This document shows positions 13,200-64,000 of a stretch of 64,000 bases of DNA, one piece after another (positions within the stretch are counted from its first letter, which is position 1; the number at the start of each line of letters is the position of its first letter). The notes under the pieces were generated by a model. The model was not told where the DNA came from. It searched no databases and saw nothing but the letters and a program-made list of their open reading frames with translations. The stretch spans positions 35,407 through 99,406 of the forward strand of contig CAYTWW010000004.1 of the NCBI GenBank assembly GCA_964441565.1. Direction: 5' to 3'. The stretch is from an uncultured Methanosarcinales archaeon (GTDB taxonomy: Archaea > Nanobdellota > Nanobdellia > Woesearchaeales > GW2011-AR15). The translations under genes and the position numbers were made by a program.

Positions 13200-13299
13200 T
13201 GAGCTAGGTGTGAAGTGCTGGAATAATCGTAAGGAAGTACTTGAGGCTCCAATGCATCAGAGGTTACAGGTACTAGTATGCAAGTCCTATGTGCCTGGT

Positions 13300-13600
13300 G
13301 ATCCTACTATGAAAGGAAGCACCCAGTCCCATGAATGGTTTTATGCAGTGATGGGAGAAAAAAGAATTTTTGAACATTTTTTCCGTCCTGGAAATCTCTT
13401 TTTGCTGGCTCAAGATCAGGGAATACCTTAAAAAAGAGACCTGGAAAAACTGAATCAATTTATTCCGATCACTGCTTCCATTGTGTGATATCGGAACCTC
13501 GGTACTACCAGGACGCAAGTCCTAAGTGCCAGGGGAGAATCGATGCCAAGACTAACGACCTGACTACCTTGGTGATGCCTAGGATCCTGTGTACTAGGTG
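13300..13600. repeat. Copy A of a dispersed composite intergenic repeat family (forward orientation)
   Basis: Shares ordered blocks with loci at 28.2, 39.4-39.8 and 48.7-49.1 kb: GTGATGGGAGAAAAAAGAATTTTT…TCTCTTTTT-loop-AAAAAAGAGACCTGGAAAAAC…TTCCGATCAC, then hairpin unit ACCAGGACGCAAGTCCTAAG and CTACCTTGG. Confidence 0.75.
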
Positions 13601-15272: not shown

Positions 15273-15413
15273 GTTCTTCTTTCACGAGGAAGCTTTTGGC
15301 TTCCAGTGCCCAGGAAATCCCGGATTTCCTTGGGCTTTGACTCCACCTTTCTTTGGAAGATTCAAAGAAAGGTGGATTCTCTGGGTTCTTTGTCTTTTAT
15401 TGTATGTTAGAAT

Positions 15414-26112: not shown

Positions 26113-26332
26113 TTACAACTTGGATTCATATCCTGCAGCATAGTTTCCAAGAGCAAACTTTAATTTGCCGTTTAGCAAATTAAGCGATTCATGACACAAG
26201 TTGTAATCTCAGAAATTCCGGTCATGTAGGAATTTCTTTTGATTAAGATTCATTTCTGATTTATTCTGTTATTATTGAAATCCTTCACTTTTTACATATA
26301 TTGCTACCCCCAACCTCTAAACAAGAACGGGG

Positions 26333-28204: not shown

Positions 28205-28410
28205 GACTTTACCAAGGTTCCGATTGCTAGCAATCTCGCTGATCGGAATTAGACAACGTCGTTAAGTTTTTCCAGTTCTCTTTTTTAAGGCTGTCACCCG
28301 AATGTGGAGCTAGTAAAAAGAGATTTTCAGGACGAGAAAAGACGAACGACTTTTTTTAACTCCATCACTGCACAAATAGCTTGATAGGGGAGCCTCTGGT
28401 GCTTCTTCTT
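28205..28410. repeat. Copy B of the dispersed composite intergenic repeat (reverse orientation relative to copies A/D)
   Basis: …GATCGGAATTAGACAACGTCGTTAAGTTTTTCCAGTTCTCTTTTTT-loop-AAAAAGAGATTTTCAGGACGAGAAAAGACG…CACTGCACAAATAGCTTGATAGGGGAGCCTCTGGTGCTTC aligns to the reverse complement of 48725-48925. Confidence 0.75.
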
Positions 28411-28494
28411 TGAATAATCTCACTGCTTTGACTTACCATAAAAACATTGCATACTCTCCTTTTCATTGAATCATATCGTCCCTCTCCCCCAAAA

Positions 28495-31306: not shown

Positions 31307-31468
31307 CCATTTTCTTTGGCTCCACCTTTATTTTATGGTTTAAAAGAAAGGTGGAATCTTTAGAATTATTCAAAGGAGAGCTTGCCATCAGAGAAAAAGT
31401 AGGACTTATTTTCTTCATACATGCTAAACTTCGTTACCATTAAATACACCTCCCTCCTCCTTTACTTC

Positions 31469-37876: not shown

Positions 37877-38353
37877 ATGAAAAGAACAATAATCCTGTTC
37901 ATGCTCATGATTGCTTCCGTAATGGCGGAAAGCATCCAGCCTATGGCATGCGATCCATTCGCCCCATCGGCAGAATTCGAAGAGGGAGCAGACATCTGCT
38001 TCTACGGCACAGGCTTTGATGAGCCAGTCGACCTTGCTCTGAGGGACAAGGCCACAGAAGAGGAGGTAGGGACCATAATCGATGCTGATGTCGACAATGG
38101 TGTCCTGAGCACTGTCTTCTCAGGCAGGTTCTTCGAGAATGTGAAGGCTGGCATCTACAGGCTCTTCATCAATCTCAGAGACAGAGACCTTGAGTACTCT
38201 GAAGACATCGTAGTGAGAGGCCAGATGGCTGATGACGATGACGATGATGACGATGATCCGACTGATCCTTCAGTCCCTGAATTCGGGACGATAGCTGCGG
38301 GCCTTGGCCTTATTGGCGCTGGAGCATATGCTGCAAGGAGGCGAAGGATATGA
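37877..38353 (+). CDS. Secreted PEF-CTERM protein with poly-Asp (D9) acidic tract
   Basis: GGGGGT RBS, signal MKRTIILFMLMIASVMA. …GQMADDDDDDDDDPTDPSVPEFGTIAAGLGLIGAGAYAARRRRI*. Confidence 0.8.
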   Translation: MKRTIILFMLMIASVMAESIQPMACDPFAPSAEFEEGADICFYGTGFDEPVDLALRDKATEEEVGTIIDADVDNGVLSTVFSGRFFENVKAGIYRLFINLRDRDLEYSEDIVVRGQMADDDDDDDDDPTDPSVPEFGTIAAGLGLIGAGAYAARRRRI

Positions 38354-39291
38354 GAAAGATACTTTTCATACTAGCTCTGCTCTCAGCTGCAGTGTTGGCA
38401 GATTGCGACCAGGTCGCTTGCCTCAATCAGGCTGAGAAAGCATGGTGCTCCCCAGGAGACTCTGCCTGTGTATTCTCTGAATGCGGCTTTTTTGAAGAGA
38501 GCGATGCAGATGGAGACAGCTGGACAGACAGCTGCGATGCATTCCCACAGGATGCTTCAGAGCAGGTGGATTATGACGCAGATGGCTGCGGCCACAACTC
38601 AGACATCGACGATCTCGACCATTCTGAAGTCTCTGGCTGTGAGGTCATCACAGACGATGATGACGATGATGACGATGACGACACAGAGGATACAGACGAG
38701 GATGGCATCGAAGACGAGTCTGACAACTGTCCAACTGTCGCAAACCCTGACCAGGCAGATAATGACGGAGATGGCCTAGGCGATGCATGTGACAACTGTC
38801 CTTCGACATCAAATCCTGACCAGGCAAATGCTGACGCAGACGGAACAGGCGATGCTTGCGAAGTTGTCGAGAAGAAAGAAAGCATCAGCTCAGGGAGCGG
38901 AGGAAGCGGACTAGGCACAGGCATCTGCATGTCAAGGGCATGGAGATGCGGTGAGTGGTCAGCATGCGAAGAAGGAACGCAGACAAGGACCTGCGATCAG
39001 ATCAACTTCGACTGCAAGGGTGACGAGAACAAGCCAAAGGAATCGCAGACCTGCGAGATGCCTGTCGAAGAAGTGATCCAGACACAGGACCAGCAGTCTG
39101 AAGAGACGGAAGAAGAGACCCAGGAGGAGACGGCAACAGTCACTCCTGTAAAGGAAGATAGTGCAGGGCTTTCAGGCATCACAGGAAATGTGATAGACGT
39201 GCCTAGGGGAGAATTCAACCCATGGATCCTGCTTCCAGTGTTCCTCGGCGGACTCTTGCTGATCTTCCTGTTCTTCAGGAAGAAGAACTGA
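38350..39291 (+). CDS. Secreted Cys-rich thrombospondin-type-3-repeat (Ca-binding) surface protein with poly-Asp tract and a C-terminal TM/basic anchor
   Basis: Signal MRKILFILALLSAAVLA. TSP3 repeats DNCPTVANPDQADNDGDGLGDACDNCPSTSNPDQANADADGTGDAC. D10 tract. C-terminus …NPWILLPVFLGGLLLIFLFFRKKN*. Confidence 0.7.
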   Translation: MRKILFILALLSAAVLADCDQVACLNQAEKAWCSPGDSACVFSECGFFEESDADGDSWTDSCDAFPQDASEQVDYDADGCGHNSDIDDLDHSEVSGCEVITDDDDDDDDDDTEDTDEDGIEDESDNCPTVANPDQADNDGDGLGDACDNCPSTSNPDQANADADGTGDACEVVEKKESISSGSGGSGLGTGICMSRAWRCGEWSACEEGTQTRTCDQINFDCKGDENKPKESQTCEMPVEEVIQTQDQQSEETEEETQEETATVTPVKEDSAGLSGITGNVIDVPRGEFNPWILLPVFLGGLLLIFLFFRKKN

Positions 39292-39374: not shown

Positions 39375-39830
39375 ACTACTACCAAGGCATTATTCCTCTC
39401 TAGTTTCTCGTGGTGCTCGTAGTACTTTGTTTTTCCACAGATCAGAGAAGAGATTTTTCAAGAAGTGAAGAGACTGTTGCTTTACTCACTGCACATCAGA
39501 GCGTGATATGGGAGCCTCTGGCACTTATGGCTTCACAGAATCACCAAGGTGCTCAGGACTTTTCGTCCTGGCACCCACTAGGGTGGCCAAGACGAAGTCT
39601 TGGTATCACTCGAAGTATCTCGTGATTCCGATCTGATTGATTACCAAGGCACTGAGGACTAGCGTCCTGGTAGCACCAAGGCTTCCGATATTGCGCGATG
39701 GAAGCAGTGATCGGAATTAAGCAATGTCTTTTTCTTTTCCAGCTCTTTTTTCTGATTATCAGTATGAAATAAAGGCTCATTTACACCTACAGGAGCCTCT
39801 GGTGCTTCTTTCCAGGTGAATGAAGCCAAC
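39375..39830. repeat. Copy C of the dispersed composite intergenic repeat (rearranged, partly inverted)
   Basis: TATCACTCGAAGTATCTCGTGATTCCGATCT (39603-39633) matches the reverse complement of 48905-48935 exactly. Hairpin units GCTCAGGACTTTTCGTCCTGGC and CACTGAGGACTAGCGTCCTGG. Two GGGAGCCTCTGG(C/T)(A/G)CTTC boxes (39510, 39792). …GATCGGAATTAAG…TTTTCCAGCTCTTTTTT…. Confidence 0.75.
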
Positions 39831-48646: not shown

Positions 48647-48659
48647 TTCTTTTGCAGCA

Positions 48660-49135
48660 TAATTCAGATTCGGGAACCAGATTTTTCAGGGTATCAGGAC
48701 GAAAATCCACCTTGTGATGCCAGCAACAGAAGTGCCAGAGGCTCCCATGCCACCTAATTGTGCAGTGACGGGAGTAAAAAGAATTTTTCGTCTTTTTTTG
48801 TACTGAACATCTCTTTTTTTTGAAAGTCTACGCTTCTAAAAAAAGAGAGCTGGAAAAACAAAAGACGACAATTTCTTCCGATCGGCGAGATCGCTCACGC
48901 CGAAGATCGGAATCACGAGATACTTCGAGTGATACGAGGACGCAGTCCTTAGTACCTTGGTAATCAATTAGATCGGAAGTCACGAGACAGTCGAGTGATG
49001 CCAGGACGAAAAGTCCTCAGCACCACGAGTACCACGAGTGGCACCAGGACCAAGTCCTAAGTGTCACGAGAGAATCGAGTGATACCCAGTACGCTAGTCC
49101 TAAGTACCTTGGCGAATGTCGCGAAGAATTCAGCG
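48660..49135. repeat. Copy D (longest) of the dispersed composite intergenic repeat
   Basis: It contains all modules. There is the GCCAGAGGCTCCC box, then GTGACGGGAGTAAAAAGAATTTTTCG…, the hairpin CTCTTTTTTTT-GAAAGTCTACGCTTCT-AAAAAAAGAGAG, CTGGAAAAAC and TTCCGATCGG. It also carries four hairpin units: ACGAGGACGCAGTCCTTAG, CCAGGACGAAAAGTCCTCAG, CCAGGACCAAGTCCTAAG and GCTAGTCCTAAG. GTACCTTGG recurs twice. Confidence 0.8.
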
Positions 49136-52210: not shown

Positions 52211-55200
52211 CTACATTCTGAGCAGCTCGTAGACCTGCTTCTCCTGCCGAATCATCTTCAGGGATGAGAACAGCTCAGACCTGGTGCTGCATGGGATCTC
52301 CAGGCAGTGCTGGTCAAGGAATGACCTGATCTCTCCACTGTTCCTGTAATACTCGTACTCATTGTCAGCCATGTATGGAAGCGCCAGATACAAGCCCTCA
52401 AGGCTATGGAGAGGGAGCCCTGACAAGAGCTGCAGAGGCATCTCAGCCTTCTTCCGGAAGTCCAGGTTTATCACATTCTCAGGCAGTTTGAGGACAGAGC
52501 TCTTCTGAGGTTCGAATTCTCCCAGATAGATATTGTATAGCACCCTGTACATCTCGAGCCTGGAGTCAGATGACATGAGGACCTTTGCGACATCAGGCCT
52601 CCCGACAGACTCTGAAACCCACTGCTGAACAAGGCTTGTGTTCGAGAGCATCCTGAAGCTGTCCTCGCTCATCGCATGCAGGTGTCTGGCAAAGTCATAG
52701 AGAGTATGGGCCTCGCTGCCCTCGGGAAGGACAAGAGGCCTTGCTGCCTTCTTTGTCATGAGCTTTCCGTCTGCTGGCCTTTTCTTGTGTCCCCCTCTGC
52801 CGAAGATGAAGAAGAGTATCGAGCAAAGTAGACATACGACCAAAAAGCCGATTATCGCATCAGCGTGGCTGTTCTTTGCCTGCTTCGGCTCTTCGATCGA
52901 GGAGGACTTCTCTTCGAGCCTCACTTCCTGCTGCTCAGGTACGACAGGTATGGAAGGCTGCTCCATCACAGGAGGACTTGATGTCTTTTCGATTATCTCT
53001 GGTTCTGGCTCTGCTTTTACCACAGATGAACGGCTGAAGCTGCCTCCACCGCCGCCACCACCGCCGCTGCCTCCGCTGCCTCCGCTGCCGCCACCACCGC
53101 CGCCGCTATCACCGCCGCTTTCCTCCTCTTCGACAGCAGCAGTTGCAAGGCTGTATTCAGTGAAATGAGGCACATCAAAGCTGACATTCTCACCTAGCGA
53201 GATGTTCTCGCATATCGGGCAAGGCAGGCCGTCTTTTAGTATGACAGGGTCTGCGAGAGTGACATGGTAGAATGTAATCCTTGCGCTGCGGTTGAGGACT
53301 GGCACCAGTGAGGAATTGATGTATACCTTCCTATCCTCTATCCCGACAAATGAATCCAGGTCGACTGCAGTGACATTGACCTCTCCTCTCAGATTTATCC
53401 TGCCATGGTCAGATATCTCTAGCGTGATCCCCTCGAAAGTCAGGTTGTTCCTATTGAAGTCAGTAGTATGTCCATCAAACTTAGATGCATTCGGATAACC
53501 GGGATCATTGCTCCTTGTTCGTAGGTTGTGGACACCTGAGCTGTAAGCATTCCCATATCTATCAGTCCCATTCACCTTCCAATAATAGTCAGTGTCATTC
53601 TCAAGACCAGTGGCTGTCATCTGGTGGCTTGTGGCCTTTGCTGTGGAATGGAGATAGCTGGGAGCTGACAGGTCCGCATATGTCGAGATGAAGAGGCTAG
53701 CATTCCCTGATTCGTTCAGCGTAAGAGATACCCTGAACCTGTCTGATGAGATGGAGTTGTTCGATATCGCTATGATCGCAGGCGGAGTGATGTCCTCTGG
53801 CTCATTCTCAAGAGTCCGGAAGAAAGAGCTGTTGGTTATGCAGTTATTGTGCCTGTCGCACGTCGTCACATTGAAGTCATAAATAGCGTTGGCTGTCAGG
53901 TCTTGAAAAAAAAAAGTATGCACAGTAGTATAGACTGAGTCGACGACTGTGCCAAGGATCGTCCAGATGGTAGAGTTCGTGGCCTCATTTGTGATGATTG
54001 TGATCTGGCCAGTCTGGTTTGTCGTGATATTCTGATGGATCAACTCAGGATAGCTGATATCCTCCCCGGAACCGGTGATCACATAGTAGTTCGAGTTCTG
54101 GCCGGTTGTTATGTCGAAAGTCACCATGTTGCCTGAGACTGAGAGGACAGGCACGTCAGATCCATCGTCCTTCGTGATTATGAATCCCTGGGTCAGCGAA
54201 AGGTCAGAGCAGTCCACAGTCACTCTCCTTGTCTTAGGTACATCGATATACGGATCCCGCTCCATCGTGTTGGCTGTGAGGACTATTCTTTCTGACGAGA
54301 CCCTGAGATGTGCCTGTGTAGGTTGGTCTGATTCGAATAAAGTTTTTTCTCCGTCATGTATGTATGTTGCATTGAATGCAGCTATCTCTCCAGCCGAATA
54401 TGCGAGCGCCCATCCATCAGTCGACTTGCCTGCATAGGATACTGTTCCATCATTGTCTCCGTCAAAGAGGACTGTGTTCCCTCCGTCAATGAGGCCTTTC
54501 TCAGTCCCATTGATAGCAGTCACTCCCTCTTCAGAGAAGGTGTTCCAGTGATGCGAGAATACAAGGTCCAGGGAAGGATCGCCGATGTCTGTGTAGTAAT
54601 AGCGCCTCCCATACTTGCCGAGGCCTCTGGACCCGCCTGAACAGCTTGTCTTGGAGAAGCAGTAATTTACATTGGTCCTCCCTCCGCCGAAATACACTGG
54701 CGAATCAGAATAGATGAGCTGCGTGGACAGGAAGATGTCCTGGCCAGTCGCAGCATTAGTCCTCCTCGCAGTCCAGTTGAGCCCGCTCACAGTAGATGCG
54801 AACTCATCATCGATGTTGATGAAGTTGTGATAGATGCGGTCCCCCTGCGTCACACCTGACACCTTTGTCCTCTTGACCACTGTGTCGCCGAACTTCACGA
54901 AATACTCCTTCACAGGATCAGCCTTGTAGTACGGACGCCACACGAATGCGCCGGCGAGATTCGCGTCCGCAGTACCCATGTAATCCTCGATGTCGCCGCC
55001 GTACTGCAGTGGAAACTGGCGGAAATTAGGATAATCGGCAGGATAAAGTGCTGGATCACATGTTTTCATTCCATAATACTGGTTTTGTCCATGTTCTCCA
55101 CATTCAGACCTGTAATAGCTTACTAACCCCTCGACATTCTGTGTGTCGTTCGCTAAGCTGATTCCATTTTTCCAGAAATCTGCCCTTGTATCATCTTCAT

Positions 55201-57613
55201 ATGGGACTTGCTCGTAATCAATAAATGGCTCCCCCAGGATATAAAGATAATAGCCCTGAGCTTGGGAGTGTCCCATCCCTCTTTCCTCACCACCATCAAT
55301 CATCAGAAAAGTGTCATTGGAGAAAGTATAGTTCGTCCTCACAATCAAGGTGTCTTCTGCATTGTCAAATACGATTTTTGGCATAGCAGACTCTGGAGCC
55401 TCTTCAGAATCAACTGAGTCAAGGATCTGCTTGTAGAGATATGAGAGAGGATATGTTCTCATGGCACTCGATTCAGATATGTTGAAAGCATACTGTCTAA
55501 TCCAAAGTGATGTCTTCTTAGTGTTCAGGTCATCGCACATCAGAGCAAAGAAAAGCGGAGTATCCCACCCTGTGAACAAGCTGTCGTCGATCTTCTGATA
55601 GCTGTTTGAATCTCCTTTTTGCACTGACCTAAGGTAAAAAGGCTCATCATTTCTGGAATCTGACCCTTTGTAGTTACCATCAAGCAGCATAACAATATGC
55701 TCTCTTGCCATAGCACAAAAGGCATTATTATACTCTTCAATATCTATGAGCGAGTTCCGATATCTCATCCAAAGGACATCAGCTAGGTGAGGAAAAGCAT
55801 AAGTTCTGTAACCATATCCTTCCTGATACATATGCCAGGAGTCATTCTTGTATGACTGAAGTATCTTGTCTTCCCTGTCCATCCATTCATCTGGTATGTT
55901 CTTGCCCCAGTACTGGTCGCTGAGATTATGGATAAGAGTAGGGTTCTCGGCATACTCTCCGATGAAGCTATAGCAGAATCCACCCATCCCTGATCCAAAA
56001 GCCAATCCATTGTCCCCTGCAATCAAAGCGTCATTGTCGAGATCAGGGCGATCTCCGGGATGGTTAACGAACAGCTGGCAGATATCATGAGCTTTTCGCG
56101 AAAGATCCTCCTGCTCCTCTTGTGTAAAATAGGGAACCATCATATCATAGGCAATAGCAACATGAAGGTATTGATGGAACGCCTGGTTGGAAGTGAATGA
56201 CGAGAGGCTCCTGTTCAGCCAGCCATGTATGTGATCACTTGCAACCTTACAATTGTTTGTGTTTTCATATCCATTATGCATACAACTCATTGCAGCCTGG
56301 CGTGCATTCACAGCATAGGGGTCAGCGCTGTCTCCTGAATATCCTTCATTCCAGTCGGAGGATACAAAGTTATTAATCCAATTGCAGGAGTCATAAGCCA
56401 CCTCGTTTTCTGGATCAGAGCAAAAAGGGATGTAGGAATTATACTCATCAAGTGAGAAATGAAACCATGGCCTGTCCTTGAAGGGGATGTAGATCCTTTG
56501 GGCATTGTTATCCTCAACATCCTCCTCTACACTATCGTCAGTATCAATCTTAACAAATCCTGAATGCCATCCATATGACTTCTCCCAATTGCATATTATC
56601 TCTGTTTCTTCCATCCCTGAAAGAGAAAGGCTGTCTTCACATAAAACAGTTCCATCCATATCCACTTTGTAGACGAAGGGTCCGGTTGGCTCTGATCCAG
56701 CGTTCCTTATAATGATTGAGAGAGGCATTTCACCTATTGGATCTAGAAGATTACTTCCAGTGTAGTCTCGTGGCAAGGTGTACCTGATAGATTTAACATA
56801 AATATCTTTTTCAGGAGGCGAACCAAGTCGTTCCTCATTGTAAATTGCCTGGACATCTAATGTAGAGAAATTGCTTCTTCTCCAGATTCTCAGCTCATCT
56901 AGGTAACCTACAATATCCTGAGAAAATATCCCTGCTCCAACTCTTAGCATGCTCCCAGAAGTCATATTTGGGGTACCGAAGGGTGTGCTTGAATTCACAA
57001 CCAGTTCTCCGTTCTTCCATACATAGCTCCTCTGTTTGTCATATTGTAGGAAGTAGAAAGTCCATTGATCTGTAGGTGACTCCTGAGTATCCCCTGGAAA
57101 AGCTTTCACTTCACCTCCTTGCGCCCATACATGAAGGTTCATCCCATAGCCTGCTTCAGTCACATGCAGGTATTTAGGCCCTCCACAGCATCCTTCATGC
57201 CCGATATCCATAATGTCAAAAGAGTTTGCTCCTGAGACCGAAATAGTTGGATATAACCAGAAAGCCACTGCAATGCCGTCCGAAAGCTGAAATTTACTGG
57301 ATGAGTTGAGATAGTCAGCACCACCATCAGCAGAGAAATCAGCGCACCCGTTAATCTTGGATTGTGCTCTATCAAGCCATTCACCTGAGCGAAATGGAGT
57401 AAACTCGTGATCGTAGCCGGAATAATCCGTCCATGGCGATGAAGAATCATCGAAAGTCAGGTTCAGTACAAGATCAGATGAAAATGAGGAGCTAGCGGGA
57501 AAAATCACAAAGGCATCAGGTTTGAAACCAAGGAGATACACCACAGCCAGGCATGCACTGACAAGAAAGATGAGTGCAAATATTTTGAATATCCTTATTC
57601 CCCCTGCCATCAA
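52211..57613 (-). CDS. Giant (1800 aa) type-I membrane surface protein with an N-terminal LamG/ConA-like domain, a polysaccharide-lyase-like (heparinase II/III-like) central region, a Gly/Ser linker, a single TM and a ~190-aa cytoplasmic tail
   Basis: N-terminal signal/anchor MMAGGIRIFKIFALIFLVSACLAVVYL. …EEEESGGDSGGGGGGSGGSGGSGGGGGGGGSFSR… linker. TM AIIGFLVVCLLCSILFFIF followed by a basic stop-transfer. Domain calls are inferred from sequence patterns only. Confidence 0.5.
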   Translation of the reverse strand: MMAGGIRIFKIFALIFLVSACLAVVYLLGFKPDAFVIFPASSSFSSDLVLNLTFDDSSSPWTDYSGYDHEFTPFRSGEWLDRAQSKINGCADFSADGGADYLNSSSKFQLSDGIAVAFWLYPTISVSGANSFDIMDIGHEGCCGGPKYLHVTEAGYGMNLHVWAQGGEVKAFPGDTQESPTDQWTFYFLQYDKQRSYVWKNGELVVNSSTPFGTPNMTSGSMLRVGAGIFSQDIVGYLDELRIWRRSNFSTLDVQAIYNEERLGSPPEKDIYVKSIRYTLPRDYTGSNLLDPIGEMPLSIIIRNAGSEPTGPFVYKVDMDGTVLCEDSLSLSGMEETEIICNWEKSYGWHSGFVKIDTDDSVEEDVEDNNAQRIYIPFKDRPWFHFSLDEYNSYIPFCSDPENEVAYDSCNWINNFVSSDWNEGYSGDSADPYAVNARQAAMSCMHNGYENTNNCKVASDHIHGWLNRSLSSFTSNQAFHQYLHVAIAYDMMVPYFTQEEQEDLSRKAHDICQLFVNHPGDRPDLDNDALIAGDNGLAFGSGMGGFCYSFIGEYAENPTLIHNLSDQYWGKNIPDEWMDREDKILQSYKNDSWHMYQEGYGYRTYAFPHLADVLWMRYRNSLIDIEEYNNAFCAMAREHIVMLLDGNYKGSDSRNDEPFYLRSVQKGDSNSYQKIDDSLFTGWDTPLFFALMCDDLNTKKTSLWIRQYAFNISESSAMRTYPLSYLYKQILDSVDSEEAPESAMPKIVFDNAEDTLIVRTNYTFSNDTFLMIDGGEERGMGHSQAQGYYLYILGEPFIDYEQVPYEDDTRADFWKNGISLANDTQNVEGLVSYYRSECGEHGQNQYYGMKTCDPALYPADYPNFRQFPLQYGGDIEDYMGTADANLAGAFVWRPYYKADPVKEYFVKFGDTVVKRTKVSGVTQGDRIYHNFINIDDEFASTVSGLNWTARRTNAATGQDIFLSTQLIYSDSPVYFGGGRTNVNYCFSKTSCSGGSRGLGKYGRRYYYTDIGDPSLDLVFSHHWNTFSEEGVTAINGTEKGLIDGGNTVLFDGDNDGTVSYAGKSTDGWALAYSAGEIAAFNATYIHDGEKTLFESDQPTQAHLRVSSERIVLTANTMERDPYIDVPKTRRVTVDCSDLSLTQGFIITKDDGSDVPVLSVSGNMVTFDITTGQNSNYYVITGSGEDISYPELIHQNITTNQTGQITIITNEATNSTIWTILGTVVDSVYTTVHTFFFQDLTANAIYDFNVTTCDRHNNCITNSSFFRTLENEPEDITPPAIIAISNNSISSDRFRVSLTLNESGNASLFISTYADLSAPSYLHSTAKATSHQMTATGLENDTDYYWKVNGTDRYGNAYSSGVHNLRTRSNDPGYPNASKFDGHTTDFNRNNLTFEGITLEISDHGRINLRGEVNVTAVDLDSFVGIEDRKVYINSSLVPVLNRSARITFYHVTLADPVILKDGLPCPICENISLGENVSFDVPHFTEYSLATAAVEEEESGGDSGGGGGGSGGSGGSGGGGGGGGSFSRSSVVKAEPEPEIIEKTSSPPVMEQPSIPVVPEQQEVRLEEKSSSIEEPKQAKNSHADAIIGFLVVCLLCSILFFIFGRGGHKKRPADGKLMTKKAARPLVLPEGSEAHTLYDFARHLHAMSEDSFRMLSNTSLVQQWVSESVGRPDVAKVLMSSDSRLEMYRVLYNIYLGEFEPQKSSVLKLPENVINLDFRKKAEMPLQLLSGLPLHSLEGLYLALPYMADNEYEYYRNSGEIRSFLDQHCLEIPCSTRSELFSSLKMIRQEKQVYELLRM

Positions 57614-58638
57614 TCCTTAAAAGAAGTATGCTGTATAAAAAACTTGCTTAAAATACCCCTGGCAACACCCTCAGCGTATCTCGCTGAAACAGCAATTAGA
57701 AGTGCAGCGATGAACATCAGGATCATTCTAACAGGGAAGGGGAATATTGATACTGCAGAAGTAACAATTGAAAAAACTGTGAAATGAGTTAAGAAAAGAT
57801 AAAGAGAAAGCTTTCCAATCTCTTCCAGCAAGGGTGCCCGCATATCTCTGAGAAAAGAATAGAGTAATAGAAACAGGCTGATTGTAAGTGCTTGCTGACC
57901 AATGATCAGGAAAAGTGAGTCTACAAGTGTTGAAATGATTGATAGAATAAGAATGCAAAAGTATAGAGAAACCTGTTTTGATGAAATCAGCCTGGAGGAA
58001 AAATGAAAAACAAGTACCCCAAATACAAGCTCTGATAATCTTGAAAAAATAAGAACCCTATACCAGAGGTCTGAGCTGGGATTAGAAAGAAAAATCAGCA
58101 TTCTAGTGATAATTGACAATGCAATGCAGCCAATGCCTGTCGCTCTAGGATACTTTCTATAAAATCCGACAAGACCAGGGAAGAATATTATGATGGAGAG
58201 TAAAAGAGTGATGTACCACCAACTGCCATCAACAGCACCGGAATACTGAAGGAAAAAACCATGTATTCCGAGAAGATGTAGCAGAATTGCGCCTGGCGTT
58301 AGGTAAAGTCTTCCTTTGAGGATAAGAGGGAATACTATGAACATCAGGAGAAGCGTCCAATACAGGGGTAGAATACTAAGTATCCTTTTTCGTAGCCAGT
58401 TACGATAATCATTGTTCCTTGAGAAATTGACTCCTGCAACAATGATGAATAACCCCACACCTGCATATCCGAGTGACATAATAGTCATCAGGAGTGAAGT
58501 AGTATTTCCTCTTAAAAAATCCAGTAACAAACCCTTGGCCAGAGGCCAATTATAAGACATACCAAACGCATGGAACAGCATCACCAAAAGGATTGCTATA
58601 CCCTTAATCTTGTCTATTGTGTGATCTCTTCCTGTCAC
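57610..58638 (-). CDS. Acyltransferase family 3 (membrane O-acyltransferase, OatA/WecH-like)
   Basis: …IDKIKGIAILLVMLFHAFG… is the typical AT3 N-terminus. 10 TM. Confidence 0.75.
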   Translation of the reverse strand: MTGRDHTIDKIKGIAILLVMLFHAFGMSYNWPLAKGLLLDFLRGNTTSLLMTIMSLGYAGVGLFIIVAGVNFSRNNDYRNWLRKRILSILPLYWTLLLMFIVFPLILKGRLYLTPGAILLHLLGIHGFFLQYSGAVDGSWWYITLLLSIIIFFPGLVGFYRKYPRATGIGCIALSIITRMLIFLSNPSSDLWYRVLIFSRLSELVFGVLVFHFSSRLISSKQVSLYFCILILSIISTLVDSLFLIIGQQALTISLFLLLYSFLRDMRAPLLEEIGKLSLYLFLTHFTVFSIVTSAVSIFPFPVRMILMFIAALLIAVSARYAEGVARGILSKFFIQHTSFKD

Positions 58639-59351
58639 TTCTGAACCTTAATCTTACCTAGCCTGAATCTGAGTTCCGCAGAGTTTTTGATATAGTCTCT
58701 TACAGTCTTCCCTATCTTTACCGTGCTACCTGAATCATCTATCCAGTCAACAGGAATCTCTTTTATCTTGAAACCTATTTTTTCAGCAATCAATAGCAGC
58801 TCAGTATCAAAGAAGAATTCATTGTCTTTTATGAATGGTTCCAGTTTCATGAACACTTCTTTTCTGACTCCTTTAAAACCGCATTGCATATCATGTATCT
58901 TTGTAAAGTAGAAAGCCTTAATGAGAGCATTATACCCCCTTGATAAAACCTCTCTCTTGAATCCTCGCTGTACAACTGAACCTTTGATTAGTCTGGATCC
59001 CACAACAATGTCTGCTCCCTGTGAAAATTCTCTCAGCATGCACGGAAACGCATCCAGACTTGTCGATAGGTCTATGTCCATGAATGTCAGTATGTCGCAA
59101 TCACTCTCCTTCCATACCGTTCTGAGGGCAACTCCCCTTCCCTTTATAGGGATCCGCACATATTTAACAAATGGAAATTCCCTTGAGATCCTTTCCATCA
59201 CTGCGGGAGTATTATCCGTGGAGGCATTATCAGCAACCACTATCCGGCATACAGTAATGTGCATTTTTTTGAGAAATTCAATCGTAGACCTGATGCTCTT
59301 TTCCAATGTTTCTGCTTCATTATATACCGGAAAAGTAATGAGGACATCCAT
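58635..59351 (-). CDS. GT2 glycosyltransferase (dolichyl-phosphate hexose transferase-like)
   Basis: MDVLITFPVYNEAETL…, …VVADNASTDNT…, …DIDLS… (DxD). Confidence 0.8.
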   Translation of the reverse strand: MDVLITFPVYNEAETLEKSIRSTIEFLKKMHITVCRIVVADNASTDNTPAVMERISREFPFVKYVRIPIKGRGVALRTVWKESDCDILTFMDIDLSTSLDAFPCMLREFSQGADIVVGSRLIKGSVVQRGFKREVLSRGYNALIKAFYFTKIHDMQCGFKGVRKEVFMKLEPFIKDNEFFFDTELLLIAEKIGFKIKEIPVDWIDDSGSTVKIGKTVRDYIKNSAELRFRLGKIKVQK

Positions 59352-59426
59352 AATGCGTAAAAAGAGAATACAATATAAAAGGGTTTCGAATTAGTGACTT
59401 TGATAGTAAAATTATAATATTAGTGA

Positions 59427-61088
59427 TTGTTCAGAAGGTCTGTGAACAAAATTGCTGCTGCAGTAGCCTATCTCTTAATGGCTTTACTGTTCACGTTTCC
59501 ACTTGTTTTTAACATAAGTTCAATGATGGTAGGAGTTGAGGAAGACAACTACCAGTTCTTGTGGAATATGTGGTGGATGAAGAGGTCGCTATTTCGAGAG
59601 GATCTACTACATACGGATATGTTATTCTATTCTCATGGCGCTGACCTTACATATCACTCCCTGACTTACTACAACTCAATAATCTCAATAGCTCTGCAGC
59701 CATTTTTCCCTCTACCAGTCATATACAACTTACTGTCAATACAGATACTTGTCTTATCAGCATTCTTCACGTACCTTCTTGTATTGGAACTGACCCAGGA
59801 AACAAAATCTGCATTTCTAGCTGGCGCATTTTTCGGTTTCTCACCCTATCTTTTGATGAAGCTCTCCCATCATCTCAATATTGCGAGCGTCCAGTTCATC
59901 CCGCTGACACTGCTCATGATGCTGCGGATAAGCAAAAATCCTAGATTCTCAAATGCGGTATACCTTTCACTCTCATTTCTGCTCGTTACACTTTGCGACT
60001 GGCATCATGGTCTGATCACAGGATTATTTATGCTGTTATTTTTCTTATTCCAATTTTATAGAGAAAGAAGCTTTTACATTATTAAGTACTTAGCTTTCTC
60101 TTGCTTAATTTTTGTAGTTCTGATTGCCCCTTTTGCTTTTCCACTGCTAAAAGGGTTGAACAGTTTTGATGAGCTTCAGATGGGTGGATATGACTATAAC
60201 AAGCTGGATCTCTTATCAATAGCTGTTCCATCCTATGATCAGAGCATATGGGGAAGGTTTTTTCGCCCACTTTATGAACGATTTGAAGGCAATGACTGGG
60301 AGAATGTAGCTTTCATCGGAATAGTCCCAGGTATCTTATTAGTTCTTTATGTCTACAAAAAAAAATATCCGGATATCTGGATATCAATGTTCATCGTATT
60401 TTATGTGCTATCGCTTGGATCACACCTTGGTGTCTTTGGCCACTCTGTGCTTAATCTCAAGGGGCAGACAATGAGCACATTATGGTTTTCAGATCACCTT
60501 CCGGACATTTCTTTAAGGATTCCCCTTCCCTTTATGTTGATTCAAAACCTTCCGTTTTTCAGCATTATCCGCACTCCCAACAGGTTCGTGATAATTGCAT
60601 ATCTTATGGCTGCTGTCATGCTGGCATATTCAGTAAAAGAAATTTGCCAGGGGAAAAGATATCTTCACTGGCTTCTTCTGTTCCTAATAATTTTTGAGTT
60701 TATTGCAATTCCATTTCCGCTGAGCAGAATTGAGGTTCCAGAAGCATATTCCTCACTGGGAATGGGGAGTCAGCCAATTATTGAGTTTCCCTCAGATAAC
60801 TACAAATCTGATGCAAAATATATGTTCTATCAAACGTACCACGAGAGGCCAATATTATCAGGATACGCCTCAAGGTCAGGTGAGACAGAAAAGTGGCTTT
60901 CTCTTGCCATTAACAGGACACTATTGTCTGAGCCAGATGCCTTCAGGAAATATGTCGGGGAGCTGAATGTCAGCCATATCCTTGTTCACAAAAATCTTCT
61001 CACATTGGACGAGCAATTTGCAGCAGAAGAAAGCTTAAAAGGTTTGGAAAAAACATCCTATGGTGATATTGATGTCTATAGAACATAA
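59427..61088 (+). CDS. Polytopic membrane protein (YfhO/GT-C-like), glycan-processing candidate
   Basis: 553 aa, ≥12 TM. Contains an A10 homopolymer at ~60353-60362 encoding KKK. Confidence 0.45.
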   Translation: MFRRSVNKIAAAVAYLLMALLFTFPLVFNISSMMVGVEEDNYQFLWNMWWMKRSLFREDLLHTDMLFYSHGADLTYHSLTYYNSIISIALQPFFPLPVIYNLLSIQILVLSAFFTYLLVLELTQETKSAFLAGAFFGFSPYLLMKLSHHLNIASVQFIPLTLLMMLRISKNPRFSNAVYLSLSFLLVTLCDWHHGLITGLFMLLFFLFQFYRERSFYIIKYLAFSCLIFVVLIAPFAFPLLKGLNSFDELQMGGYDYNKLDLLSIAVPSYDQSIWGRFFRPLYERFEGNDWENVAFIGIVPGILLVLYVYKKKYPDIWISMFIVFYVLSLGSHLGVFGHSVLNLKGQTMSTLWFSDHLPDISLRIPLPFMLIQNLPFFSIIRTPNRFVIIAYLMAAVMLAYSVKEICQGKRYLHWLLLFLIIFEFIAIPFPLSRIEVPEAYSSLGMGSQPIIEFPSDNYKSDAKYMFYQTYHERPILSGYASRSGETEKWLSLAINRTLLSEPDAFRKYVGELNVSHILVHKNLLTLDEQFAAEESLKGLEKTSYGDIDVYRT

Positions 61089-62517
61089 AAAGTATAGGAT
61101 CTTGTTGCTACTGGCAATTGTCGGTCTTCTTCTAAGGCTTTACCTACTGGACAAGCAAAGCCTCTGGAATGATGAGGCTGATGAAGTTATGCTTCTGAAG
61201 CGATCAAGCCTTTTCCAGCTTGCCACAGGTGAAGAGTTCGACCAGAGCCATCCTCCACTATATCATCTTGCTCTTGGAGCATGGACTTCCGTCTTTGGAT
61301 ATAGTCGTTCATCGGTAAGATTACCTTCTGTTCTGTTTGGAGTAGCTGCTATCATAGGCACTTACTTCATTGGAAAACTCATTTTTAATACAGAGACTGC
61401 TCTTGCTGCAGCTTTTCTTCTTGCGATTTCCCCTTTCCATATAATGCAGAGCCAAATTGTAAGACCATATGGACTCCTGATATTGTTAGGTATCATCAAT
61501 CTCTACTTCTTCTTCAAGTATAGAGATACAAAAAAAAAACTTTACCTTTTGGCTTTCACGGTAACCGCAATCCTCATGAATTATACCCATTATTTTGCTG
61601 CACTACAGATCGCAACGCTTAATGCAGCCCTTATACTGTGGCACAGGCATGCTTTTGATCGGAGATGGATTATGGCAAACATTATTATCGCACTCGCATC
61701 TTTGCCTCTTATTGCCTTGATATCAAAGGGGCTTGGACAGGGAGCAGGTGCGAGGACTTTTTTTAGCCCTCTTGAAATTGCCTATCTTGCCCAGATGTTC
61801 TCGATTGGGTCAGCAGGTTTCATTTTCAAGTTATCAACACTAAAGGAAGATATTATTGCCCACCTGCCAGTGCTGGCTATAACAGCAGCCGCCTATGGAT
61901 ACTTGCTCCTTACATTTGTCAGGGACTTCAGCAGATGGAAGAAGAACAATAACATTACGTTGTTGATTTTCTTCATACTTATGCCAACAATATTGCTCTA
62001 TGTTTCAGGGTTTGTTTACCCCTTATTTCGTGCAAGGTATCTATCATTCATCTATCCTGCTGTTGTACTTATCATCTCCTATGTAATAGCGAACCTGTCC
62101 AGACCTAAACTGGCTTTTACTGTTATTGCGGGTCTAAGTATCTTCTCGCTGTCCAGCTACTACTTTTCATATCAGAGCGAACCATGGGAACAGATCTGCG
62201 AATATATTGAAGCTAATGGAGATCAAGGAGACCTTATCCTTGCTTCTAGGACAAAGCCTTTCGCATACTGCTATTCAGGAACTGCTCGTCACCAATTCAT
62301 CCTTGATATGGATGAAGACCAGATTTTGGCATATCCTTCTATTTGGTTGGTCCTTTCCAACTACCGACAAAGCTATGCTCACGAGACAGAAGAGCTGAAG
62401 GATATACTTAATGCGAGCTATAGAACAGTAGATGAAAGGTTTTTCAAAGATGACATGAACATCATATCCGGAGACATAATTGTGTATCATTTCATAAGAA
62501 GTAGTAACTTACAATGA
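61060..62517 (+). CDS. GT-C glycosyltransferase of the ArnT/PMT (GT39/GT83-like) type
   Basis: First extracytoplasmic loop …LYLLDKQSLWNDEADEVMLLKRS… (DE motif), polytopic. Contains an A10 tract (~61535-61544). Confidence 0.55.
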   Translation: MVILMSIEHKKYRILLLLAIVGLLLRLYLLDKQSLWNDEADEVMLLKRSSLFQLATGEEFDQSHPPLYHLALGAWTSVFGYSRSSVRLPSVLFGVAAIIGTYFIGKLIFNTETALAAAFLLAISPFHIMQSQIVRPYGLLILLGIINLYFFFKYRDTKKKLYLLAFTVTAILMNYTHYFAALQIATLNAALILWHRHAFDRRWIMANIIIALASLPLIALISKGLGQGAGARTFFSPLEIAYLAQMFSIGSAGFIFKLSTLKEDIIAHLPVLAITAAAYGYLLLTFVRDFSRWKKNNNITLLIFFILMPTILLYVSGFVYPLFRARYLSFIYPAVVLIISYVIANLSRPKLAFTVIAGLSIFSLSSYYFSYQSEPWEQICEYIEANGDQGDLILASRTKPFAYCYSGTARHQFILDMDEDQILAYPSIWLVLSNYRQSYAHETEELKDILNASYRTVDERFFKDDMNIISGDIIVYHFIRSSNLQ

Positions 62518-63812
62518 AACCGAAGTACATGATCTTCGTAGGTACTTTTATTGTATTAATGCTACTTACAAAGACAACAGTGCCATCAGGTAATCCTGCA
62601 TCTCGCTTTGCCTCTGTGGAATCTCTTGTAGAAAGAGGTACATGGGCTATTGACAATTCGTCATTCTTCGGGGATGCAAACACTTATGATCCGGAGGGAG
62701 CTGAGCCGCTAATGATGAGGAATTCGCAAGAGGCAATAAACGGGACTAATGATATGGTCCAGATTAACGGCAGGTTTTACTCAGATAAACCTCCGGTACT
62801 GTCACTCCTTGCTGCCTTTCCATATTTAATACTCTATAACCTTGGAATCACTTTTTCAGCTGCAGGCAACATGGCAGTGTATCTCCTGACATTGTTCACT
62901 GTTGGCCTATCTGTCTCTCTCCTTGCGATGCTTTTTTTCATTGAAGCAGAAAAAACAGGTCAGAAGACAGCAGGAGCCTTCACGTTACTGATGATCTTTG
63001 GCACCCTTATTCTGCCATATTCGGTCACGTTTAACAACCATATTTTCTCTGCGGTCTGCATCTTTGCATCATATACACTCATCCGAAACGTGCAGGGCAT
63101 GGGTCTTACTCTCGCTGGTTTCCTAGCTGGCATGGGATTTGTAATAGACTTGGTGAGCGGTGGAGTATTCATGGCCTTGTTCGGCGTACTAGTCATTATT
63201 AACAAAGGTTGGAAGAGTGCACTGCTGTTTTGTGTTCCATGTGTGTTCCCACTAATTCTTCACTGCATTATTAACATCCCAATTACAGGCGATGTCATGC
63301 CTGGCGCAATGCATCCAGAGTACTGGGATTATCCAGGATCAGACTTCAGCGCGTCAACACTTACTGGAGTTTCTCTGAACCTTTCCGGCTTAACTACATA
63401 CACATTCCATCTTTTGTTCGGCTATAGGGGCATGTTTTTGTTCTTCCCAGTTCTGCTTTTTGCATGTATCTATTTGTTAGGTTCACTGCGGGTTCAAAAG
63501 GAAAGACTATATAGCCTGTCTATCCTGACAGGTTCAGTTGCAGTCATTTTATACTATGCACTATTTTCTGATAATTTTGGAGGATGGTCTTATGGTGTTA
63601 GATGGTTTGTCCCTCTGATTCCAATTCTTATGACTGGTCTTTATCGTGCTGGCAAGATCAATCGATTGTTCATCGTTGCCTCAGTTATTTCAATCGTGTC
63701 TGCATTGATAGGACTATATCAGCCATGGACTGACATGTGGTATAGCCCAATTCCATTCATAAACAACTTAAGGGAGATAGCAATCCTGGTTAAAAGCATA
63801 CTATTCAAGTGA
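62514..63812 (+). CDS. Polytopic membrane protein, GT-C-like
   Basis: 432 aa, ≥10 TM. ATGA overlap with the upstream gene. Confidence 0.45.
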   Translation: MKPKYMIFVGTFIVLMLLTKTTVPSGNPASRFASVESLVERGTWAIDNSSFFGDANTYDPEGAEPLMMRNSQEAINGTNDMVQINGRFYSDKPPVLSLLAAFPYLILYNLGITFSAAGNMAVYLLTLFTVGLSVSLLAMLFFIEAEKTGQKTAGAFTLLMIFGTLILPYSVTFNNHIFSAVCIFASYTLIRNVQGMGLTLAGFLAGMGFVIDLVSGGVFMALFGVLVIINKGWKSALLFCVPCVFPLILHCIINIPITGDVMPGAMHPEYWDYPGSDFSASTLTGVSLNLSGLTTYTFHLLFGYRGMFLFFPVLLFACIYLLGSLRVQKERLYSLSILTGSVAVILYYALFSDNFGGWSYGVRWFVPLIPILMTGLYRAGKINRLFIVASVISIVSALIGLYQPWTDMWYSPIPFINNLREIAILVKSILFK

Positions 63813-64000
63813 TTTCAATGCCTTATTAAGCCCTTTCAGAAAAATTTCAAGAGAGAATTTTTTGGCTGCTGCATTTGCTGCTTGGGTAAGTCTATCCGGT
63901 CCCTGAATAGCCTTTGTTGTCAGTTCAGGGAGCTCAGCGGGATTATCCCATATAAGTCCTCCCTTTCCCACAACTTCAGGTTGAGCTCCAAGATTTATGA
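63801..64000 (-). CDS. Partial CDS (C-terminal 66 codons of a gene running off the right edge)
   Basis: The minus-strand frame reads …INLGAQPEVVGKGGLIWDNPAELPELTTKAIQGPDRLTQAANAAAKKFSLEIFLKGLNKALKSLE* with the stop at 63801-63803. Not in the ORF track because the start lies outside the window. Confidence 0.3.
   Translation of the reverse strand, partial: INLGAQPEVVGKGGLIWDNPAELPELTTKAIQGPDRLTQAANAAAKKFSLEIFLKGLNKALKSLE

Follow-up and report, generated by a model that had tools for sequence, protein, structure and literature searches.

The archaeal DNA analysed here, a 64-kb stretch of contig CAYTWW010000004.1 (hereafter the window), carries a family of modular hairpin repeats, six units of which are spread over four loci: 13229–13585 (+), 28205–28412 (−), 39375–39815 (−) and 48660–49135 (+). 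The units are non-coding, fill the largest gaps between the genes of a compact genome, facing either way, and join an ordered head to a reiterated module of ~43 nt; the similarity between them is mosaic, and the pairing of their hairpins is kept by compensatory substitutions. With moderate confidence, we explain them as a lineage-specific intergenic repeat of modular hairpins, akin to the repetitive extragenic palindromic (REP) elements and bacterial interspersed mosaic elements (BIMEs) or to the pneumococcal BOX, which probably doubles as a transcript-end module. The family is an archaeal example of the REP/BOX class, i.e., a known kind of repeat and not a new kind of system. Among the three interpretations offered by the initial annotation, the REP-like, modular mosaic one fits these intergenic, multi-copy units with compensated hairpins and variable module number, whereas a strict MITE (miniature inverted-repeat transposable element) and independent small-RNA genes were not supported, as set out below.

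Unit plan, copies and mosaic similarity

Each unit consists of a head of ~190 nt followed by zero to four copies of a ~43-nt double-hairpin module (X + Y), ends in CCTTGG and measures 160–480 nt in total. The head starts with box1, (G)AAGYRCCAGAGGCTCC(C), separated by a spacer of ~15 nt from box2, TGTGCAGTGAYGGGAG; an A/T-rich stretch (AAAAAGAATTTTT…) and a long imperfect hairpin with the inner stem TCTCTTTTT/AAAAAGAGA come next. The block AAAAAGAGANCTGGAAAAAC sits between this A/T-rich long hairpin and a second hairpin, H3, and the 3′ part of the head reads CTGGAAAAAC, a ~15-nt spacer, H3 (TTCCGATC-loop-GATCGGAA) and CCTTGGT. The initial annotation had described the reiterated hairpins as a single form; the array does exist, but it is built from two small hairpins in alternation and closed by the tail (T/C)ACCTTGG. 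Hairpin X has the form TCAC-GA-G-(4–6 nt)-C-GA-GTGA, and hairpin Y the form CCAGGAC-(3–5 nt)-GTCCTNAG with three further outer pairs.

The six units of the window are A0 (truncated), A, B, the tandem pair C1 + C2, and D, with the element strand being + at loci A and D and − at B and C. The earlier count of four, possibly five, copies was therefore right in the number of loci but too low in units, and a seventh unit (locus F) was found 5.3 kb left of the window start in other assemblies of the same population. This makes seven units in ~100 kb, the portion of the genome covered by the gene tables and unit counts. The number of X/Y modules differs between units: none in B, about two (decayed) in A, about three in C1 and four in D. 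The conserved stem with a variable loop, reported earlier as common to the copies, is present, yet TCTCTTTTT/AAAAAGAGA is complete in A, B and D only; C1 retains the 3′ arm, C2 the 5′ arm, and in F the hairpin has collapsed.

Every block named in the initial annotation was recovered, in order, at the four loci, and chance similarity does not account for them. Box1 occurred five times with up to two mismatches against 0.18 expected (none of 100 shuffles reached five), and the 20-nt 3′-arm block AAAAAGAGANCTGGAAAAAC three times against 0.02 expected from shuffles. Pairwise BLAST between loci gave E = 1e-14 to 1e-19 at 68–80% identity over 100–180 nt. A profile hidden Markov model (HMM) built from four heads was run over the window, 20 kb of flanking contig and 47 kb from two relatives; the main units scored E = 1e-45 to 1e-55, and nothing beyond family units scored in the ~150 kb searched. 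The four loci are not the only places with copies, nor is covariation wholly lacking (see below).

Similarity among the copies is distributed as a mosaic. The H3 loop of A is most like that of C1 (87% over 38 nt), and the first Y of these two is likewise similar; H3 of D matches that of F at 95% over 41 nt, with B, D and F being mutually alike in this hairpin. The arrays of C1 and D are 95–96% identical over 26–38 nt, while their heads are only ~77% identical. The longest exact segment shared by loci C and D is inverted, as reported initially, and runs over 32 nt instead of the 31 given there (48904–48935 versus 39603–39634). Such a pattern fits recombination or gene conversion combined with module reiteration.

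The features of the units are as follows.

Locus A
13229..13312 (+): truncated unit A0, with the box1 variant AAGTACTTGAGGCTCC at 13235–13250 (a match with two mismatches), a degenerate Y and CCTGGTGAT
13316..13496 (+): head of unit A, head profile E = 4.6e-48
13318–13333 (+): degenerate box1 of A
13342–13357 (+): box2 of A
13395–13403 / 13431–13439 (+): inner stem of the long A/T hairpin of A
13441–13450 (+): CTGGAAAAAC of A
13463–13496 (+): H3 of A, TTCCGATC…ATCGGAA
13497..13585 (+): hairpin array of A, with Y at ~13508–13526, a degenerate X, a degenerate Y and the tail CCTTGG at 13567–13572

Locus B
28205..28412 (−): unit B, a head without X/Y array, head profile E = 1.1e-55
28389–28404 (−): box1 of B
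28359–28374 (−): box2 of B
28315–28323 / 28277–28285 (−): inner stem of the A/T hairpin of B, with the outer stem GTCGTT/AACGAC
28268–28275 (−): CTGGAAAA of B
28218–28248 (−): H3 of B, with CCTTGG at 28212–28217

Locus C
39535..39815 (−): unit C1, head profile E = 1.4e-10
39792–39807 (−): box1 of C1, which lacks box2 and the 5′ arm
39735–39750 (−): 3′ arm plus CTGGAAAA of C1
39683–39716 (−): H3 of C1
39544–39682 (−): array of C1, Y-X-Y′-hairpin-Y, with Y′ being the compensatory variant CCAAGAC/GTCTTGG
39375..39534 (−): degenerate unit C2, directly in tandem after C1, head profile E = 2.6e-06
39511–39526 (−): box1 of C2, followed by a truncated box2, the 5′ arm TCTCTTCTC joined to TGGAAAAAC, and a degenerate X
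39382–39387 (−): tail CCTTGG of C2

Locus D
48660..48724 (+): leading remnant, with a T5 run at 48682–48686, a degenerate Y and ACCTTGTGATGCC, all before box1
48725..48912 (+): head of D, head profile E = 9e-55
48730–48745 (+): box1 of D
48759–48774 (+): box2 of D
48779–48877 (+): long A/T hairpin of D, outer stem TCGTCTTTT/AAAAGACGA, inner stem 48810–48821 / 48838–48848, z = −3.2
48850–48859 (+): CTGGAAAAAC of D
48876–48912 (+): H3 of D
48913..49112 (+): array of D with four X + Y modules, tail CCTTGG at 49107–49112
48913–48932 and 48935–48952 (+): module 1, X1 and Y1
48971–48978 (+): additional GATCGGAA within the array
48980–48998 and 49001–49020 (+): module 2, X2 and Y2
49023–49041 and 49044–49061 (+): module 3, X3 and Y3
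49064–49082 and 49086–49104 (+): module 4, X4 and Y4

Locus F (left of the window, on a contig of the same population)
L200:311–488 (minus): unit F, with box1 GAAGTACCTGAGGCTCCC, box2 TGTGCGGTGATGGGAG and a collapsed A/T hairpin

The box1 variant of A0 agrees with that of F. Downstream of the F head, ~270 nt of unrelated perfect hairpins precede the X + Y modules. This stretch (L200:1–300, equal to L202:1737–2050, 5.4 kb left of the window) comprises seven perfect hairpins of 8–10 bp enclosed by a 12-bp long-range stem, AGAAGCCAGAAA/TTTCTGGCTTCT; it gave no Rfam match at E ≤ 1, has no second copy in the window and could be either a structured RNA or a separate set of palindromic modules.

Pairing in the hairpins and the RNA alternative

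Both strands of locus D fold far better than shuffled sequences (z = −5.25 and −5.07), which would also suit a family of paralogous, expressed structured RNAs in which the unit or its X/Y array would function at the RNA level, e.g., by serving an RNA-binding protein as scaffold or sponge with many hairpins. We regard this alternative as rather doubtful, for reasons that become clear from the individual hairpins and from the transcription signals around them.

Either strand of A, B and D folds into the long A/T hairpin, with z between −0.6 and −3.2, the modest values being due to the A-runs and T-runs, which also pair in shuffles. Its outer stem varies and remains complementary (TCGTCTTTT/AAAAGACGA in D, GTCGTT/AACGAC in B, TTTTTCC/GGAAAAA in A). 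Checking the four heads with RNAalifold gave no net covariation support (covariation term +0.75), and conservation of the head is at the level of sequence and not of covarying pairs. The block AAAAAGAG-CTGGAAAA is kept in C1 and F although its pairing partner is lost; likewise, AAAAAGAGANCTGGAAAAAC persists in these two units where the opposite hairpin arm is gone, which is in favour of an RNA and suggests that the block is a sequence signal instead of a stem.

For the small hairpins, covariation was tested on eight X + Y modules from loci C, D and F. In their stems, 90% of the cells were paired, against 22–37% with the 3′ partner slid; four of the 13 pairs had changed on both sides, and only two of 500 shuffles reached the observed score. 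The closing pair of X is UA in four modules, CG in three and UG in one, the outer pairs of Y vary between UA and CG and between AU, GC and GU, and one inner Y pair has changed from GC to AU in C1. These compensatory changes, with some G·U intermediates, agree with function as RNA, as does the tandem G·A motif of X (CGAG/CGAG), which would be stabilising on the element strand only and therefore favours that strand. On the other hand, the G·U and A·C cells are about balanced between the strands, so that the non-Watson–Crick cells favour neither of them, and the number and type of modules vary from copy to copy, with B having none at all.

The transcription signals, too, argue against RNA genes. 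Promoters of the host are obvious (TTTATATA, TATTTAAA or TATAAA 20–35 nt ahead of ATG, a distance implying leaderless mRNAs), but no canonical TATA box is conserved inside or ahead of the units, which speaks against each unit being its own gene. Moreover, the early-head T-runs on the element strand would end a transcript begun upstream, and no element-strand T-run follows the arrays. Rfam 15 gave no match at the gathering score over the whole window and, at E ≤ 10, only chance-level microRNA-type hairpin matches of at most 20 bits; permissive searches of loci C, D and F were likewise empty. The proposal of independent small-RNA genes is accordingly not supported, given the missing conserved TATA box, the early oligo-T runs and the strand-neutral wobble pairs. 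Known RNA types were also considered. Box C/D and K-turn RNAs have RUGAUGA and CUGA boxes with a 3-nt bulge beside tandem G·A pairs; X has the tandem G·A but no bulge, the GUGAUG(G/C) motifs have no partner CUGA in the required register, and no Rfam C/D family matched. Fragments of group II introns were rejected in the absence of an Rfam match.

Hairpins are not confined to this family. Perfect hairpins with a stem of at least 8 bp number 19 in the window, compared to ~6.8 in shuffles, and five of them fall within its ~7% intergenic portion (e.g., 26160–26183 and 26211–26237 behind the L10e gene); this genome may generally place hairpins after its genes. Another small palindromic repeat, TCCACCTTTCTTTG-loop-CAAAGAAAGGTGGA, lies at 15342–15376 in the atpB/atpD spacer and at 31321–31355 in the OapC/TatD spacer (four half-sites against 0.24 expected). 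Beside the first of these, 15310–15333 (CCAGGAAATCC-C-GGATTTCCTTGG) has the same CCAGGA…TCCTTGG ends as the Y modules.

Genomic setting, mobility and transcript ends

The A-type ATP synthase operon, ribosomal protein L10e and OapB/OapC identify the host, a small uncultured organism, as archaeal. The best named homologues of its TatD are from metagenome-assembled genomes (MAGs) of Candidatus Woesearchaeota at only 55–64% identity, and for TYW3 no homologue exceeds 43%. Assemblies of this one population, at least 99.6% identical, come from at least seven Joint Genome Institute (JGI) samples plus one Sequence Read Archive run.

The four largest intergenic gaps of the window (573, 557, 449 and 403 bp) coincide exactly with the repeat loci, summing to 1982 of its 4384 intergenic bases (45%). 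On the element strand, units A, C1 and D each follow a gene directly; C and F additionally follow a gene of the opposite strand, and B is placed between the divergent promoters of a NOG1 GTPase and a major facilitator superfamily (MFS) transporter. The claim that copies mark boundaries between gene blocks holds only in the weak sense that units fill the longest spacers, and locus D does not stand at the edge of the AT-rich stretch: the GC drop begins near 55 kb inside a gene of 1800 aa, 6 kb beyond D. From within this gene and through a glycosyltransferase cluster (55000–64000), the GC content falls from ~0.50 to 0.39–0.43; the cluster reaches at least 10 kb past the window (contig L047), and this low-GC region may be a horizontally acquired or fast-evolving surface-glycan island. 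Two coding regions contain tandem repeats of their own: a 9-nt GCY/ACC period at 53039–53118 in the 1800-aa Laminin_G_3 surface protein gene, and GATGAC repeats plus a 69-nt duplication at 38231–38826 in a gene for a thrombospondin-type-3-repeat protein. Just left of the window (L198:2524–7648) are a methyl-accepting chemotaxis protein with HAMP, a CheW–response regulator fusion and a multi-PAS protein, whose gene extends to ~1909 of the window; such a chemotaxis set is unusual for an archaeon of DPANN type with Woesearchaeota as its closest named relatives.

Dispersal in both orientations through intergenic DNA only, together with restriction to one lineage, raises the question of a non-autonomous transposon, i.e., a MITE or a palindrome element of the IS200/IS605 or RAYT type whose hairpins are recognised by a transposase encoded elsewhere. 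At locus B, the orthologous NOG1 GTPase/MFS spacer is 403 bp long here and 128 bp in the nearest relative (L058), the excess corresponding to unit B, so that the locus resembles an insertion of ~275 bp; the relative is, however, only 64% identical in protein, and the spacer sequences are therefore not alignable. In ~47 kb from the two nearest relatives (TatD 64% and 62% identical), no unit of the family was found. Locus D lies between two copies of the 7-nt AATTCAG, a direct repeat (near 48655 and 49127), but no equivalent was found at A, B and C. The units have no terminal inverted repeats (TIRs): the head start (GAAGYRCCAGAGG) and the array end (…AGTACCTTGG) are alike as direct, not inverted, repeats, and the inverted-repeat scan returned pairs only between different loci or within hairpins. 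Lack of TIRs and of target-site duplications would by itself be tolerable, since IS200/IS605-type elements also lack both and have subterminal hairpins. The 3′ boundary is, however, ragged with a variable number of modules, units stand in tandem, and at A, C2 and D leftovers of Y modules are found before box1. Neither the gene tables over the ~100 kb nor Pfam/NCBIfam scans revealed a transposase, integrase or reverse transcriptase. The presence/absence polymorphism named by the initial annotation as a sign of mobility did not appear among the samples of this population, with no filled-versus-empty difference among the contigs compared from seven samples. A transposon is in our view unlikely; the units share with MITEs a small size, several copies and a non-coding nature, but a strict MITE finds no support, with no TIRs, no consistent target-site duplication and no transposase within ~100 kb.

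Decayed genes, remains of a known insertion sequence (IS) or an assembly artefact are a very improbable source of the family. One spurious open reading frame (ORF) of 56 aa is called in C1, and a 21-aa mini-ORF is open in the heads of B and D; however, no frame is free of any of the three stop codons, and a search of 5.8 billion proteins with the 56-aa product retrieved only itself. The mini-ORF is broken in A and C2, and its copies in B and D differ by four synonymous versus six non-synonymous changes. Its 21 codons, (TTG)CSDG.KK..SSF.VL.ISF., are of equal length in D (48757–48822, +) and B (28309–28374, −) and are probably a by-product of T-rich sequence; a small protein was rejected because half of the copies have the ORF broken. 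Independent assemblies of at least seven samples contain the same sequences, which is hardly expected of an artefact. No homology to a known IS or a degraded gene was found, and BLAST against plasmid and phage collections gave no DNA match to the family.

Several other explanations were tried and rejected: a CRISPR array or leader (X and Y alternate without unique spacers, and Tandem Repeats Finder finds no regular array), the template and variable repeats of a diversity-generating retroelement (differences between copies are not adenine-specific, and there is no reverse transcriptase), and origin recognition boxes of a replication origin (seven in 100 kb are too many). Pattern searches beyond this population brought only chance matches. 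The pattern CCAGAGGCTCC-N10–25-TGCAGTGA matched 22 times in 185,579 species genomes, all apparently by chance; 21 of these, judged by record titles only, belong to unrelated bacterial or archaeal MAGs, and the one archaeal match inspected, from a Methanomethylophilaceae MAG, lies within a gene. The pattern AAAGAG-N0–2-CTGGAAAA-N10–26-TTCCGATC in JGI metagenome contigs gave 19 chance matches without the flanking blocks of the family, mostly in apparent coding sequence, and the source sample is evidently not in that collection. Scans of viral contigs yielded chance matches only, and a literature search on the motif strings and on DPANN repeats produced nothing relevant.

In several samples, the assemblies start or stop at the repeats. 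Contigs of 58.8 and 86 kb have their start within the hairpin region of locus F, one of 1.15 kb terminates in the F head, and one of 16.9 kb 80 nt past locus A. Contigs L202 and L204 match across TYW3, unit F and the first X + Y module at 97.8% (at least 99.6% elsewhere) and then split to the left of locus F, one leading into a 101-aa ORF and the other into a Na/Ca exchanger; the split is either a rearrangement at the array or a chimeric join.

The location of the units after genes brings transcript ends into focus. Oligo-T runs are an established termination signal in archaea, in the form of 5–8 T on the transcribed strand directly after genes, and hairpins are not normally required. Of the 123 T or A runs of at least five in the window, 24 fall in the repeat loci, which make up 3% of the sequence. 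They occur early in the units beside stable hairpins, on both strands within ~100 nt; A, B and D have T-runs on both strands, and C on the + strand only. Like ordinary archaeal terminators, the units thus offer T-runs of at least five downstream of genes, here on both strands; unlike them, these runs are set within a conserved repeat of 200–480 nt. Oligo-T runs combined with hairpins make a role as bidirectional stop and 3′ structure plausible, and a unit would probably serve in this way for transcripts entering from neighbour genes. Spread and homogenisation of the repeat would proceed by DNA-level processes, namely recombination or gene conversion between copies, with X/Y modules gained and lost via slippage or unequal exchange; alternatively, a hairpin-recognising enzyme encoded elsewhere might act in trans.

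Several observations weigh against a REP- or BOX-like repeat that doubles as a transcript-end module. Locus C has no element-strand T-run, and locus B lies between divergent promoters, where no transcript would need a stop. The covariation comes from eight paralogous modules, with the tested structure read from the same modules, and the copy count rests on ~100 kb of genome. Neither TIRs nor consistent target duplications were found, and no mobility event is seen: the samples represent one population, at least 99.6% identical and with the same insertions, which leaves spread by transposition purely inferential. One may also think of a new archaeal class, either expressed multi-hairpin RNAs of a DPANN lineage, whose head would give start or stop signals and whose X/Y array would be a modular protein-binding scaffold, or a TIR-less mobile element, which would depend for its movement on a hairpin-specific enzyme that has so far not been connected with archaeal repeats of this kind; we consider a new class quite improbable.

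Relation to known repeats and meaning for the lineage

The closest parallels to a modular hairpin repeat of this kind are bacterial. Pneumococcal BOX elements are modular intergenic repeats of the form boxA-(boxB)n-boxC, and the archaeal units share with them an ordered head, internal modules of ~43–45 nt (zero to four here) and a short tail, as well as strictly intergenic placement in either orientation, predicted stable multi-hairpins, a non-coding nature and a mobilising enzyme that is not known. The differences are the sequence, with homology not being expected across the two domains, the archaeal host and the much longer head (~190 nt) with oligo-T runs. Moreover, the archaeal head and tail are not mutually complementary and so do not form TIR-like ends.

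REP elements and BIMEs have been described in bacteria, i.e., in Enterobacteria and Pseudomonas, together with RAYT transposases. The likeness here lies in short imperfect palindromes (X and Y, 18–20 nt) arranged in arrays with fixed linkers, in compensated stems, in the location after genes and in the mosaic arrangement of units. In contrast to BIMEs, whose hairpins alternate, all array hairpins here have the same orientation, a long conserved head is joined to the arrays, and no RAYT gene is present in the ~100 kb. Correia elements have 26-nt TIRs and a TA duplication, and dRS3 inverted repeats delimit the Neisseria intergenic mosaic elements (NIMEs). They, too, are comparable as mosaic intergenic arrays able to carry promoter or terminator signals and to alter the expression of neighbours, but the archaeal units have neither 26-nt TIRs and TA duplication nor dRS3 boundaries.

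The importance of the family is local, to the genome biology and assembly of DPANN archaea. In a small, tightly packed DPANN-type genome, nearly half of the intergenic DNA of 64 kb belongs to one private repeat family, and expanding repeats thus occur even in streamlined genomes. Such repeats break metagenome assemblies and may mediate rearrangements, as suggested by the two assemblies that disagree beyond one array. For annotation, the units yield spurious ORF calls, and their T-runs and hairpins likely shape operon boundaries. No long-standing question is opened by the family; the head and X/Y profiles provide a handle on how repeats spread in this lineage.

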